Shown here in pieces: positions 1-12,725 of a stretch of 64,000 nucleotides of DNA. Location of the stretch: positions 143,305 through 207,304 of the forward strand of contig CBDEFV010000007.1 of the NCBI GenBank assembly GCA_965237735.1, written 5' to 3'. The DNA comes from Candidatus Porifericomitales bacterium (GTDB taxonomy: Bacteria; Pseudomonadota; Gammaproteobacteria; CBDEFV01). The position numbers and the translations under genes were made by a program. The notes below the pieces were generated by a model. That model made no database searches. It worked only from the letters and a program-made list of their open reading frames with translations, and was not told where the DNA came from. How positions within the stretch are numbered: position 1 is the first letter of the stretch; each line of letters opens with the position of its first letter.

Positions 1-1154
1 GGGACCCGGGCTACTTTTTAGGAGATCTTCAGGTAGACCCGGCGCATTTGCAGGAGTGCTTTGATGCGGACACCCTCTTCTACGACGTCTTCTTTGAACC
101 GACCAACCGACATCTGGTTGCCGTCGGCCCGCCTCTGGGCAATTTACACCTGGATCTGGAAATCTGCGTAAACGGAGAGCCAATCAACCTTGATGTGATC
201 AAGCACGCGGCCAGTCGGATGCACCTGGTGAGGGGGGGGGACCGGATCGCAAAACAAAATGACATTCGCATAAAGGCAAACGCACAGACGTGGGAGCTCA
301 GCGTACCTGCAAACAACACCGGAACCAGTCATAAGTTCACCCTTTGCACTGTACAGAAAGACAACAGAGAGCATTGGATCAAAGACTGGATTGAGCATTA
401 TCGAAAAATCGGCGTCGACCGAGTGATTCTCTACGACAACAACAGCGAGAAGCTCCCCGATGTCGATGCCATTGTCATTCCCTGCCCGTACAAATTCGGT
501 CTCAGTAAATATGCCAGTATTTATAGAGGGTGGGCGTGGAAAACCGATTTTCTGCAGAGAAGCCTGCTGACGATCTGCGGCTACAAGTATCAAAATGGCC
601 ATCTGCTGAACTTTGATATTGACGAGCTGTTGCAAGTCAAAAGCCTGCGGAAATTCAAATGGTACAGACTGGTTTATTTTAATTCCTGTTTTGTGGAAAC
701 CAAAACAGAAGAGAAGCTGCCCGAGGACTACTCGTTCAGGCATTTTGTATATAGAAATGCGTATCTACGAAATCAAGACTTTAAATATATAATCAGAATG
801 AACGATATGCTGTGTTGCTCCAATCCGCACGTCGCCGTATTGAAAAATTCCATCCCGAAAAGAGTTGTTTCAAAACTTCAAAGGCTCTGGCAGTATCAAC
901 TTGAAAATATCCGGTCGTACCTGAAATCTGGACTTGCAAAGAAAGTGATGTCGATATGGGCTCCTCCAGGCGAGGATGTTCCTCGCTATAAGACACATCC
1001 ACGCTGGCCTGAAGGCAAGCCATCTCTTCCGGGCAAAGATGTTTTTTATCACTACAAGGCCATAAATACCGGTTGGAAAGTGGATAGGTCTTCCTTTGAT
1101 GAAGCTACAGAGGTGGTGAAAATCGAGAACTCACAGCCCTATAGTTGCGATTGA
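1..1154 (+). CDS. GT92/DUF23-like glycosyltransferase-domain protein, array copy 1 (5' end outside window)
   Basis: Frame continues from base 1 (RDPGYFLGD..AHLQECFDAD) with no start codon, so the gene begins upstream. It has the conserved core HW[IK][KR]DWIEHYRKIGVDRVILYDNNSEKLPDVDAIV and a FDIDELL DXD-like motif, as in Pfam GT92 (hhDiDEfl). It is 60-75% identical to copies 2-10. Confidence 0.8.
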   Translation, partial: DPGYFLGDLQVDPAHLQECFDADTLFYDVFFEPTNRHLVAVGPPLGNLHLDLEICVNGEPINLDVIKHAASRMHLVRGGDRIAKQNDIRIKANAQTWELSVPANNTGTSHKFTLCTVQKDNREHWIKDWIEHYRKIGVDRVILYDNNSEKLPDVDAIVIPCPYKFGLSKYASIYRGWAWKTDFLQRSLLTICGYKYQNGHLLNFDIDELLQVKSLRKFKWYRLVYFNSCFVETKTEEKLPEDYSFRHFVYRNAYLRNQDFKYIIRMNDMLCCSNPHVAVLKNSIPKRVVSKLQRLWQYQLENIRSYLKSGLAKKVMSIWAPPGEDVPRYKTHPRWPEGKPSLPGKDVFYHYKAINTGWKVDRSSFDEATEVVKIENSQPYSCD

Positions 1155-1316
1155 GTTTTATCATGATGAAAGATTGTAGCGGGCGAAGGAGGTGGACTCG
1201 TGAATGACCACCCAAGACCTGCTCCAGTCCCCGCTAACCAAGAAACGACTATCGCTGACCGCCGATTTCGCAATCCTGCCTCCTCTCCCAAGCAATTATG
1301 GTTTCACGACTAATAA
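1155..1316 (+). promoter_or_regulatory. Conserved array leader (TTATCATGATGA box plus downstream GCAATCCTGCC..CAAGCAATT element)
   Basis: Contains gagttttatcatgatgaaag and gatttcgcaatcctgcctcctctcccaagcaatt. The same elements recur upstream of copies 3, 4, 5, 6, 7 and 10. Confidence 0.5.
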
Positions 1317-2426
1317 ATGAATAAACCACACCTGAACGACGACATCCACCAACTCAGGGGCATCCGGCTGAAGGGACTGAACAGAGACTTGGGCTACTTT
1401 TTAGGAGATTGCAAGGTGGAGCCAGCGCATCTGGAGGAGTGTTTTGATGCGGACACCCTGTTCTACGATATTTTCTTCGAACCAACCAACCAGCATCTGG
1501 TCGCCGTCGGCCCGCCTCTGGGCAATTTGCAGGTGGATTTACAGATAGATGTTAACGGAGAGCCAATCAAGATCAGCGTGGTTGAGCAGGCAGCCGAACA
1601 GTTGCATCTGGTGAGGGGGAAGGTGAGCCGGGTTACAAAACAAAACGACATTCGCATAAAGGCAAATGCACAGACGTGGGAGCTCAGCGTACCTGCAAAC
1701 AACAGCGGAACCGGGCACAGATTTACCCTGTGCACGATACAGAAAGACAACAGGGGGCATTGGATCAAAGACTGGATTGAGCATTATCGAAAAATCGGCG
1801 TCGATCGAGTGATCCTCTACGACAACAACAGCGAGAAGCTCCCCGATGTCGATGCCATTGTCATTCCCTGCCCCTACAAATACGGTCTCCATAAATATTT
1901 CAGTATTTATGAAGGACGGTTGTGGAAAACCGGTTTTCTGCAGAGAAGCCTGCTGACGATCTGCGGCTACAAGTACCGAAGCGGCCATCTGCTGAATTTT
2001 GATACTGACGAATTGTTGCAGGTCAAAAGCCTGCGGAAATTCGAAAAGCGTGAACTGATTTATTTTGATTCCTGTTTTGTAGAAACCAAAACAGACGGAA
2101 AGCTGCCCGAGAACTACTCATTCAGGCACTTTGTGTACAGAAATGCGCACCTGAAAAATGAAAGCCTTAAATTTATTATCAAGATGGACAGGCTGCTGTA
2201 CATCCCGCATTCGCACCGCGTAAGATTAATACCAAAGAAAAAATCCATCTCAAGAAGAATTGTTTTAGAGCTTCAGAGGATTCGAAAGAAATTGATGTCA
2301 AAAATAGTTCCTCAAAGCGGCGATATTTTTTATCACTACAAGGGAATAAATACCGGTTGGAAAGTGGATAGGTCCTCCTTTAATGAAGCCACGGAGGTGG
2401 TGAAACTCAAGGGTCCACAACTCTAA
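1317..2426 (+). CDS. GT92/DUF23-like glycosyltransferase-domain protein, array copy 2
   Basis: ATG start, 369 aa, N-terminal MN..D[ID]HQLRGIRLKGL motif. Shares the YDNNSE and FD[TI]DELL motifs with the other copies. Confidence 0.85.
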   Translation: MNKPHLNDDIHQLRGIRLKGLNRDLGYFLGDCKVEPAHLEECFDADTLFYDIFFEPTNQHLVAVGPPLGNLQVDLQIDVNGEPIKISVVEQAAEQLHLVRGKVSRVTKQNDIRIKANAQTWELSVPANNSGTGHRFTLCTIQKDNRGHWIKDWIEHYRKIGVDRVILYDNNSEKLPDVDAIVIPCPYKYGLHKYFSIYEGRLWKTGFLQRSLLTICGYKYRSGHLLNFDTDELLQVKSLRKFEKRELIYFDSCFVETKTDGKLPENYSFRHFVYRNAHLKNESLKFIIKMDRLLYIPHSHRVRLIPKKKSISRRIVLELQRIRKKLMSKIVPQSGDIFYHYKGINTGWKVDRSSFNEATEVVKLKGPQL

Positions 2427-11400: not shown

Positions 11401-11603
11401 CGCCTATAGGCTGGGCTCGGGCTTTATCATGATGAGAGGTCATAACGGCCGACGAGCGGAGGCTCCTCTCTAGCCCCTCAAGCCTTGCTTTGGCCCCGGC
11501 TGAATGGGGATGGCTTGCCGCTGGCCGACCACACCAAGTCCCCTTTACTTTGCAACCCAGGCCCCCAACCAATGAAAAGAGCCCGACCGAGGATGCAACC
11601 CGC
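11401..11603 (+). promoter_or_regulatory. Conserved array leader
   Basis: gggctttatcatgatgagagg ... ctttgcaacccaggcccccaaccaatgaaaagagcc. Confidence 0.5.
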
Positions 11604-12725
11604 ATGAACGGCGATGTCCATCGACTCAGAGGCACCCGGCTGAAGGGAATCGAGAGAGACCCCAGCTACTTTTTACGAAACTGCCGGGTAGAGCAGGCCC
11701 ATCTGCAGGAGTGCTTTGATGCGGATACCCTGTTCTACGACATCTTCTTTGATCCGACCAACCGACATCTGGTCGCCGTCGGACCGCCCATCGGCAACCT
11801 GCAGATAGATTTGGAGATCTACGTAAACGGAGAGCCGGTTAAGTTTGATGTGATCAAGAAGGCGGCCAGTCGGGTGCATCTGGTGAGGGGGAAAGTGAAC
11901 CGGATCGAAAAACGAAATGACATTCTGGTCAAGGCAAACGGACACCAATGGCAACTCAGCGTACCTGAAAACAACACTGGAACCGGGTCCAAATTTACCT
12001 TGTGTACACTACAAAAAGACAACAGAGAGCATTGGATAAAGGACTGGATTGAACATTATCGAAAAATCGGAGTCGATCGGGTAATCCTCTACGACAACAA
12101 CAGCGAGAAGCTACCTGAGGTTGATGCCATCGTCATACCCTGCCCTTACAGATTCGGCCTCAATAAATATGTCAGTATTTATGGAGGACAGATGTCGCAT
12201 GCCAGTTTTCTGCAGAGAAGTATGCTGACGATCTGCAGCTACAAGTACCAAAGCGGCCATCTGCTGAATTTTGATATCGACGAGCTGCTGCAGGTCAAAA
12301 GTCTGGACAAGTTCAAAAAGCGCAGACTGATTTGTTTTGATTGCTACTTTGTAGAAACCAAATCAGACAAGAAGTTACCCGAAAACTATTCGTTCCGACA
12401 TTTTGTATATAGAAACGCCCATATGAGAAACGGAGGCTATAAATATATGGTCAAAATGGAAGCTTTACTGTATTCTAATGATGCGCACTACCCAGTATTA
12501 ATAAAATCACTCTCAGCAGCAATTATCTTAATACTTCAGAGGCCTTGTTTGTACCTGAGGGCCAGACTTGCAAAGAAAACGGCGAGGGTGCCCAAAATCG
12601 ATTATCTGGGAGAGCATGTTTTTTATCACTACAAGGCAATCAATACCGACTGGAAGGAAGACAGGTCCTCCTTTGATGAGGCTACGGAGGTGGTGAAGCT
12701 CAAGGGTGCACAATCCCAGACATAA
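11604..12725 (+). CDS. GT92/DUF23-like glycosyltransferase-domain protein, array copy 10
   Basis: ORF track 11490..12725; likely start ATG 11604 (MNGDVHRLRGT). Conserved core present. Last copy before the RND genes. Confidence 0.8.
   Translation: MNGDVHRLRGTRLKGIERDPSYFLRNCRVEQAHLQECFDADTLFYDIFFDPTNRHLVAVGPPIGNLQIDLEIYVNGEPVKFDVIKKAASRVHLVRGKVNRIEKRNDILVKANGHQWQLSVPENNTGTGSKFTLCTLQKDNREHWIKDWIEHYRKIGVDRVILYDNNSEKLPEVDAIVIPCPYRFGLNKYVSIYGGQMSHASFLQRSMLTICSYKYQSGHLLNFDIDELLQVKSLDKFKKRRLICFDCYFVETKSDKKLPENYSFRHFVYRNAHMRNGGYKYMVKMEALLYSNDAHYPVLIKSLSAAIILILQRPCLYLRARLAKKTARVPKIDYLGEHVFYHYKAINTDWKEDRSSFDEATEVVKLKGAQSQT

Follow-up and report, generated by a model that had tools for sequence, protein, structure and literature searches.

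The first 12,725 nucleotides (nt) of the stretch analysed here, a 64,000-nt window of contig CBDEFV010000007.1 (assembly GCA_965237735.1, Candidatus Porifericomitales bacterium, forward-strand positions 143,305 to 207,304), hold ten consecutive paralogous open reading frames (ORFs) on the plus strand, whose products are very probably GT-A glycosyltransferases of the family 92 (GT92) type. In the ORF list and the gene calls they measure 360 to 414 amino acids (aa); trimmed to the conserved N-terminus, the proteins span 360 to 401 aa and share 63 to 75% pairwise identity, close to the 60 to 75% given for ten same-strand paralogs in an earlier reading of the letters without database searches (hereafter the sequence-only reading). 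All ten ORFs are intact and full length, with start codons, although several true starts, to judge from the gene caller and the alignment, are not those of the longest ORFs. The genes, in window coordinates, are as follows.

1 to 1154, plus strand: g1, GT92-like paralog, 414 aa in the gene call for the source contig; its 5' end falls outside the window, some 90 nt ahead of position 1.
1317 to 2426, plus strand: g2, GT92-like paralog, 369 aa.
2595 to 3782, plus strand: g3, GT92-like paralog, 395 aa from the upstream ATG; conserved Met at 2628.
3802 to 4962, plus strand: g4, GT92-like paralog, 386 aa; its start falls within a shortened intergenic motif.
5141 to 6331, plus strand: g5, GT92-like paralog, 396 aa.
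6669 to 7763, plus strand: g6, GT92-like paralog, 364 aa.
7971 to 9089, plus strand: g7, GT92-like paralog, 372 aa, the copy modelled below.
9103 to 10281, plus strand: g8, GT92-like paralog, 392 aa, 13 nt past g7.
10297 to 11400, plus strand: g9, GT92-like paralog, 367 aa, 15 nt past g8.
11604 to 12725, plus strand: g10, GT92-like paralog, 373 aa, the last copy; a resistance-nodulation-division (RND) pump gene is next, at 12908.

The sequence-only reading had the array running off the window edge, with more copies possible beyond it. That part did not hold: hemN (radical-SAM) and a xerC-like gene sit directly upstream of g1 on the source contig, so the array consists of exactly ten units and does not continue past the edge. 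Other features of the array were described correctly. Its G+C content (GC) is 0.45 to 0.53 against 0.63 to 0.65 over the next 10 kb downstream, and GC at third codon positions is 0.57 to 0.67 against 0.76 to 0.86 in core genes. The core strings quoted as almost invariant, HWIKDWIEHYRKIGVDRVILYDNNSEKLPDVDAIVIPCPY and GHLLNFDIDELLQVKSL, are present with few substitutions. Core DNA identity among copies is 72 to 90%, and the units diverge by 10 to 28% in DNA, a divergence also given as 20 to 25%. Within g8, an in-frame duplication (about nt 9187 to 9288) places MEQADLEECFDA twice, 22 residues apart, and gives this copy a longer linker before its beta-sandwich. Long antisense ORFs within some copies (e.g., 10396 to 11181, minus strand) were taken as spurious because they are present in few units only.

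The assignment to GT92 proposed in the sequence-only reading is borne out by profile searches above cutoff and by predicted structure. Profile PF01697 (GT92) matched four of the four copies tested, at 26.8 to 36.8 bits against a cutoff of 23, and precomputed PF01697 matches cover 47 of the 48 proteins of the clade; PF13704 (Glyco_tranf_2_4) reached 27 to 36.6 bits against a cutoff of 27.5, and the best matches in a viral library were giant-virus “LicD and GT92 domain” proteins. Searches of NCBIfam and of PDB sequences with the array proteins gave nothing useful. GT92 enzymes, best known from animals and plants, are metal dependent and inverting. An AlphaFold model of g7, made from a 32-sequence family alignment (mean predicted local distance difference test [pLDDT] score of 73.9; predicted template modeling score of 0.75), has a confident beta-sandwich at residues 40 to 121 (pLDDT 86 to 95) followed by a Rossmann-like GT-A domain. 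The best structural match by a wide margin is the plant beta-1,4-galactan synthase GalS1 (PDB accession number 8d3t). GalS1 joins a CBM95 module to a GT92 GT-A domain and uses a histidine as its catalytic base (PMC11062476). In structure comparison, the beta-sandwich region of g7 was matched by Ig-like folds; it resembles the glycan-binding module of GalS1, with CBM95 as its candidate equivalent. No membrane-spanning segment was found (maximum 19-residue Kyte-Doolittle mean, ≤1.7), and each gene product is predicted to be a soluble, cytoplasmic two-domain enzyme, with the beta-sandwich preceding a GT92-type GT-A domain. The parts of g7 referred to below are as follows.

8088 to 8333, plus strand: beta-sandwich of the g7 model, about residues 40 to 121.
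8358 to 8870, plus strand: GT-A core, about residues 130 to 300.
8457 to 8471, plus strand: YDNNS.
8526 to 8573, plus strand: hypervariable inserted loop, residues 186 to 201.
8640 to 8648, plus strand: DID of the DIDE motif.
8853 to 8855, plus strand: H295.
8991 to 8993, plus strand: H341.

The DIDE motif (D224-I-D226-E227), which had been read as the DXD motif of the GT-A fold, fits that role: it is invariant in the clade and 85 to 97% conserved across 146 distant relatives, and Y163-D164-N165-x-S167 is likewise conserved in both. H295 and H341, invariant in the clade and 84 to 95% conserved in the distant relatives, are candidate counterparts of the catalytic histidine of GalS1. The positions best conserved in the 146 relatives are Y163-D164-N165-x-S167, D224-x-D226-E227, K280, H295, H341, W349, and several residues of the beta-sandwich. 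Between its “FG” and “FLQ” motifs, the clade has a specific insertion of about 10 to 12 residues that is absent from all 146; this is the hypervariable loop, and it lies beside the active-site motifs.

On the age of the copies, the sequence-only reading overstated their likeness in calling them near-identical, since synonymous divergence is near saturation. Between paralogs, the proportion of differing synonymous sites (pS) is 0.53 (synonymous rate, dS, about 0.9) and that of nonsynonymous sites (pN) is 0.175, with an overall ratio of nonsynonymous to synonymous rates (dN/dS) of 0.22; the longest DNA stretch in which one copy matches another exactly measures 59 nt. These are old copies that have been maintained, not the product of a recent amplification. 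In the catalytic core, dN/dS is 0.03 to 0.08 with pS still at about 0.5, a combination that points to selection on the protein and not to recent copying or gene conversion.

The differences among copies are concentrated. When changes were counted by parsimony in 43 intact copies drawn from seven contigs, purifying selection was significant at 193 of 370 codons, and nonsynonymous changes were concentrated at g7 residues 81 to 90, 191 to 200, 271 to 280, and 291 to 340; nominal nonsynonymous-excess sites (uncorrected P values) cluster at R190, Y198, K199, and T201. Sliding-window dN/dS rises to 0.4 to 0.75 at alignment columns 101 to 120, 201 to 225, and 350 to 370, and the inter-copy analysis that the sequence-only reading had suggested thus places raised values in the loop and the C-terminal insert (0.5 to 0.75, against the 0.03 to 0.08 of the core). 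Four variable places result (g7 numbering): the loop at 186 to 201, the distal half of the beta-sandwich at 81 to 100, residues 271 to 280, and the C-terminal insert at 301 to 335. The earlier picture of variable N- and C-terminal parts needs correction: N-terminal residues 38 to 75 are among the best conserved, and the parts that vary are residues 81 to 100, 186 to 201, 271 to 280, and 291 to 340. The donor-side residues (YDNNS, DIDE, H295, and H341) show essentially no differences among the ten copies.

Seven of the nine intergenic spacers (97 to 337 nt) contain a conserved upstream module of about 180 to 200 nt, which opens right after the preceding stop codon with a near-palindromic box, TTTAT(C/A)ATGATGAAAG, followed by several conserved blocks. 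On the source contig this module also precedes g1, and it recurs in related genomes, being kept across paralogs and genomes alike; on one related contig (L005), the box always reads TATAAT. An upstream in-frame ATG gives some copies a short N-terminal extension. The boxes in the window are as follows.

1157 to 1172, plus strand: box directly after the g1 stop, heading a conserved leader of about 180 nt before g2.
2440 to 2455, plus strand: box upstream of g3.
3796 to 3811, plus strand: box upstream of g4, overlapping the g4 start; leader shortened by a deletion.
4986 to 5001, plus strand: diverged box upstream of g5.
6494 to 6509, plus strand: box in the TATAAT form, upstream of g6.
7786 to 7801, plus strand: box upstream of g7.
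11423 to 11438, plus strand: box upstream of g10.

Judged by its sequence, the box may serve as a −10 element of the TATAAT type or else as an operator; since a TATAAT-like box heads the module, the copies that bear it could be expressed separately. Gaps of only 13 nt (g7 to g8) and 15 nt (g8 to g9) make co-transcription of g7, g8, and g9 probable. A sigma-70 promoter scan returned fewer sites than in shuffled sequence, and an excess of terminator-like matches arises because the same coding motifs recur in every copy. The leaders were also considered as regulatory RNAs, a candidate that was rejected: at gathering thresholds, Rfam matched only three tRNAs in the window, and RNAalifold on 26 leaders found no consensus structure. 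Cassette-type antigenic variation of the pilE/pilS kind, in which silent partial copies feed a single expression site, does not fit the array, all ten copies being full length with starts and the module being present in seven of nine spacers and upstream of g1. The g5-g6 spacer (6332 to 6668) is 337 nt long, against about 200 nt in others, with the extra sequence before the box; a similar long spacer type recurs on the related contigs L003 and L004, and the spacer may be what is left of a unit since lost.

A database of 5.8 billion proteins yielded only 48 close proteins, all encoded on a small number of contigs. Where the hemN and membrane-fusion proteins of a contig are 80 to 87% identical to those of the window, the locus has the same order of hemN, array, and RND pump, and the number of units there varies widely: about 12 on L003 (several of them broken), at least 11 each on L004 and L007, 8 on L005, and 3 on L008. 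Three contigs of one sample are 94 to 98% identical in DNA, yet their unit content differs. In all three high-GC genomes examined, array GC is 0.47 to 0.49 against 0.61 to 0.66 in the flanks. A neighbor-joining tree pairs g3, g6, g7, and g9 of the window with orthologs on L003 and L004, groups g1, g2, g4, and g10 together, and renders the copies of L005 and of L002 monophyletic per genome, a pattern that suggests birth and death with some homogenization. L002 (OZ244717.1, a Candidatus Oxydemutatoraceae metagenome-assembled genome [MAG] of about 45% GC) carries, at 9926 to 16229, five copies that are 72 to 91% identical to each other and about 50% identical to the window copies; they lie at another site, between dapA/nlpB and aminotransferase/uvrB genes, and this array would be either mobile or very old.

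Downstream of the array, window positions 12908 to 20796 hold two 1,068-aa AcrB-type RND pump genes around a membrane-fusion gene, an MdtABC-like layout. The first of these pump genes is absent from L003 and L004 and truncated on L005, so the boundary on the array side is also unstable.

Beyond the clade, a profile search of 1.84 billion representatives returned 1,115 relatives at E values of ≤0.001, most of them matched near full length, and the two-domain layout is therefore a trait of the family. Its named members are bacterial: a “glycosyltransferase family 92 protein [Leptothoe spongobia]” (NCBI name) and proteins of Fibrobacterota and Omnitrophota MAGs, and the wider family includes Cyanobacteria. 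Distant relatives, at 26 to 31% identity, are single copy in four of the four contexts examined; the nearest outlier, P0048 on L006 (29% identity), is a single gene in a polysaccharide locus with sulfotransferases, GT2 and GT4 enzymes, and a Wzx-type flippase. A phage or defence origin was considered and rejected, there being no PHROG or PADLOC matches for the enzyme and no relatives found in viral contigs. The same was concluded for a diversity-generating retroelement: no reverse transcriptase is present among the scanned genes beside the array, although the whole genome was not searched.

Tracts of G or C occur in several of the units, as follows.

Window 232 to 240, plus strand: g1, where the G6 of its paralogs is G9, in frame (encoding R-G-G-D).
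L005, 4852 to 4870: SEK(LP)DVD core motif, where C6 has become C19; the copy is 1 nt out of frame, and C18 or C21 restores an ORF of 362 to 363 aa.
L007, 5854 to 5860: 3' end of a unit, C7.
L003, 4126 to 4135 and 5316 to 5340: 3' ends of two adjacent units, C10 and C25.
L003, 6396 to 6405: N-terminal extension, where G6 has become G10-A-G7, in frame.

One and the same 3'-end site thus reads C7, C10, or C25 across units and strains of L007 and L003, and slippage clearly occurs at these G/C runs, with tract-length differences seen between contigs only. The rest of the window array has no G/C tract of 7 nt or longer besides the G9 of g1, and about 100 kb outside the arrays contains two 9-nt G/C tracts and none longer. 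The only other G/C tract of at least 9 nt in the window is a C9 at 60173 to 60181, which lies some 110 nt ahead of a low-GC gene for a sulfotransferase (60289 to 61158) and could be another slippage-prone site.

Taken together, we propose that the array is a bank of enzymes that share a donor and differ in acceptor. Because the donor-site residues are essentially identical in all ten copies, the nucleotide-sugar site is most likely shared and all would use the same UDP-sugar, which, by analogy with characterized GT92 enzymes, may be UDP-galactose or a close hexose. Since the copies differ at four acceptor-side places, each would recognize a different acceptor or make a different linkage. Copies bearing the upstream module would be expressed separately, and g7, g8, and g9 together; units would be gained and lost through unequal crossing-over, with occasional exchange between copies, and slippage at G/C runs could switch a copy off. 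The net effect would be strain-variable, and possibly cell-variable, sugar decorations on a surface glycoconjugate, under a selective pressure that is likely host recognition, phagocytosis, or phage attack. To this full model, a same-donor, different-acceptor bank that diversifies a surface glycan, turns over by unequal crossing-over, and suffers occasional slippage knock-outs, we assign an even chance. The suggestion of variable glycosylation or of a recombination reservoir in the sequence-only reading stands to the extent that it is compatible with the copy-number turnover, the variable loops, the slippage tracts, and some mosaicism; the glycosylation itself we infer.

A number of observations count against this model or the steps that lead to it. 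At the level of the enzyme, the PF01697 match spans only profile positions 1 to 43 (approximately) of 249, the family profile found no match among PDB sequences, and the g7 model is of moderate quality, with pLDDT below 50 at residues 326 to 372, which include H341. The clade also lacks the W at g7 position 180 that is 82% conserved in the wider family and has Ile at position 210 in place of an H that is 93% conserved in relatives, so the chemistry may have shifted. As to diversification, none of the 20-codon windows has a dN/dS above 1, and one site alone (L327) would survive multiple-test correction. Exchange between copies is indicated by mosaic triplets picked after inspection of the data, one of which has g5 resembling g10 up to nt 450 and g7 beyond it (P < 0.002; for g10, P = 0.006); a PHI-like global recombination test was not significant (P = 0.66, with 58% of site pairs incompatible), a test that is uninformative because the sites are saturated. 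The box has no good −35 element near it and was not flagged by the sigma-70 scan. The tracts are sporadic, with one in the window and none in the arrays of L004, L007, L008, and L009, and the consensus length of high-fidelity (HiFi) reads is unreliable at long homopolymers. No genes for sugar-nucleotide synthesis, a flippase, a polymerase, or a ligase flank the array in any genome examined, its neighbors there being hemN, xerC, and RND efflux genes, and the sponge-symbiont setting derives from relatives only.

Of the alternatives, a fixed assembly line would have the ten enzymes act sequentially, or at ten fixed positions, on one invariant glycan, the locus being an ordinary if unusually homogeneous operon. 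Ten intact copies under purifying selection and the short spacing of g7, g8, and g9 agree with this, and an invariant donor site fits a homopolymer-like product. The number of units at this locus, however, ranges from 3 to about 12 among the relatives, strains that are 94 to 98% identical differ in it, and orthology is partial, with the copies of L005 and L002 grouping by genome; because copy number turns over and a fixed pathway would be expected to leave one-to-one orthologs, we hold this explanation to be unlikely.

We consider it similarly improbable that the array is an expanded family of effectors, delivered to host (sponge) cells or acting on bacterial or host proteins in the manner of Legionella Lgt or NleB/SseK. 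The proteins are soluble and have no glycan-assembly partners nearby, they are encoded in a low-GC island of a small genome of host-associated type, the window also has a eukaryote-like tetratricopeptide repeat (TPR) protein, a GT6 gene, and a LicD gene, and the GT92 enzymes best known are those of animals and plants. Against such a role, neither a secretion signal nor a secretion system was seen, the beta-sandwich resembles the GalS1 glycan-binding module, the nearest outlier is located in a polysaccharide locus, and the wider family is bacterial, with some 1,100 cluster representatives that include Cyanobacteria, Fibrobacterota, and Omnitrophota.

Neutral or selfish tandem amplification in decay, with most copies redundant or nonfunctional, would explain the truncated and frameshifted units of related arrays and their labile copy number, although some of the broken units are on contigs of 2 to 4× coverage and may be sequencing errors; with ten intact copies in the window at a dS of about 0.9, a dN/dS of 0.22, and core values of 0.03 to 0.08, it is very unlikely, because neutral copies would long since have gained stops. 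The least tenable explanation, with a probability we take as negligible, is a repeat collapsed or expanded by the assembler, as the sequence-only reading had allowed: the contig is metagenomic and has about 7× coverage, but the units differ by 10 to 28% in DNA, share no identical tract beyond 59 nt, and belong to a type of array that was recovered by independent assembly in at least seven contigs of five ENA assemblies (ERZ accessions).

The pyrB of the window is closest to those of uncultured Gammaproteobacteria and Ectothiorhodospiraceae (about 60% identity), and the only named genome among the relatives with the family is the Candidatus Oxydemutatoraceae MAG. The genus Oxydemutator was described from the sponge Stylissa (PMC11685487). 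From these relationships we infer a sponge setting, and a host-associated lifestyle would be consistent with the TPR protein, the GT6 and LicD genes, the sulfotransferase, and a large defence island.

These other genes are arranged as follows. A second low-GC island (23400 to 27600; GC 0.39 to 0.44) lies beside tRNA-His, tRNA-Arg, and tRNA-Pro genes at 28312 to 28581 on the minus strand. Its GT6 gene is split over two ORFs, at 23851 to 24123 (profile positions 69 to 120) and 24071 to 24685 (positions 204 to 311), and is therefore frameshifted or a pseudogene; the same island has a LicD-family gene (25468 to 26247) and a 328-aa ORF without assigned function (26338 to 27324). Both GT6 and LicD are linked to surface decorations of a host-like type. 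Three EamA/DMT transporter paralogs follow one another at 35056 to 38139, a region of strongly negative AT and GC skew, and a low-GC gene (GC 0.46) at 38724 to 40277 encodes a eukaryote-like protein of 517 aa that consists almost wholly of about 14 TPRs; eukaryote-like repeat proteins are often reported in host-associated bacteria. The low-GC defence island (41365 to 58756) encodes an HKD+Snf2 helicase (PADLOC C3a139; E value of 9e-130), a type IIG restriction-methylase/PglX-like protein, a 672-aa GNAT-containing protein, a PDC-M33A/B pair, DUF6339, and a GmrSD/HEC-05-like nuclease.

Comparison with known systems separates what is familiar in the array from what is new. The family GT92 itself is already known, as are multiplied, variable glycosyltransferases (Neisseria lgt, Campylobacter paralogs, and nematode GT92). 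The array proteins resemble characterized GT92 enzymes (GalS1, PDB accession number 8d3t, and Caenorhabditis elegans GALT-1) in their Pfam match, N-terminal beta-sandwich with GT-A domain, DXD motif, and conserved histidines, but they are bacterial, have about 11% identity to GalS1, and are without a membrane anchor or stem. GT92 genes are described as multiplied in nematodes too, where they shape surface glycans and pathogen susceptibility. Single-copy bacterial GT92-like genes (P0048 on L006 and that of Leptothoe spongobia), at 26 to 31% identity to the array copies, have the same two-domain layout, YDNxS, DxDE, and two histidines; they keep WNF...LNH motifs and are without the inserted loop, whereas the array clade has lost the equivalents of W180 and H210 of the wider family and gained the hypervariable insertion.

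Phase-variable glycosyltransferase contingency genes include Neisseria lgtABCDE, Haemophilus influenzae lic2A/lgtC, Helicobacter pylori fut, and the poly-G paralog families of Campylobacter jejuni. Loci of the Neisseria lgtABCDE type are like the array in having tandem paralogous glycosyltransferases, exchange between copies, coding G/C tracts able to shift the reading frame, and repertoires that differ among strains. They comprise 2 to 5 genes of mixed families, whereas the array has ten copies of one family; its tracts are sporadic (one G9 in the window) instead of fixed per gene and are known between contigs only, and it has no adjacent genes for the lipooligosaccharide or lipopolysaccharide core. 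Bacterial glycan loci normally combine different transferase families and do not multiply a single one. To our knowledge, no bacterial GT92 enzyme has been characterized so far, and limited full-text literature searches found no paper on bacterial GT92 arrays or on a characterized bacterial GT92. What is new is a ten-member array of a single family kept as a locus across a clade, together with remodeled active-site surroundings that include a hypervariable inserted loop.

A more specific form of the proposal is possible but tentative, and we rate it as rather doubtful: that a small-genome lineage related to sponge symbionts has made a single GT92-type enzyme into a bank of 3 to 12 individually expressed members with fast turnover, in which the new hypervariable loop would retarget the same donor to other acceptors and G/C slippage would turn copies on and off, as a dedicated system of surface-glycan variation by which a nonpathogenic symbiont may escape host phagocytosis or phages. 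About 12 kb of a 2.3-Mb-class genome is spent on ten maintained copies, and the locus varies from 3 to about 12 units in close relatives, which points to strong and changing selection on the glycan repertoire. Were all copies to share one specificity, the array would be a simple dosage amplification of little wider interest. If the copies differ in acceptor specificity, they would form a natural series for how a GT-A loop sets acceptor choice, and the array would then also be a candidate for a factor that determines recognition of these bacteria by hosts or phages.

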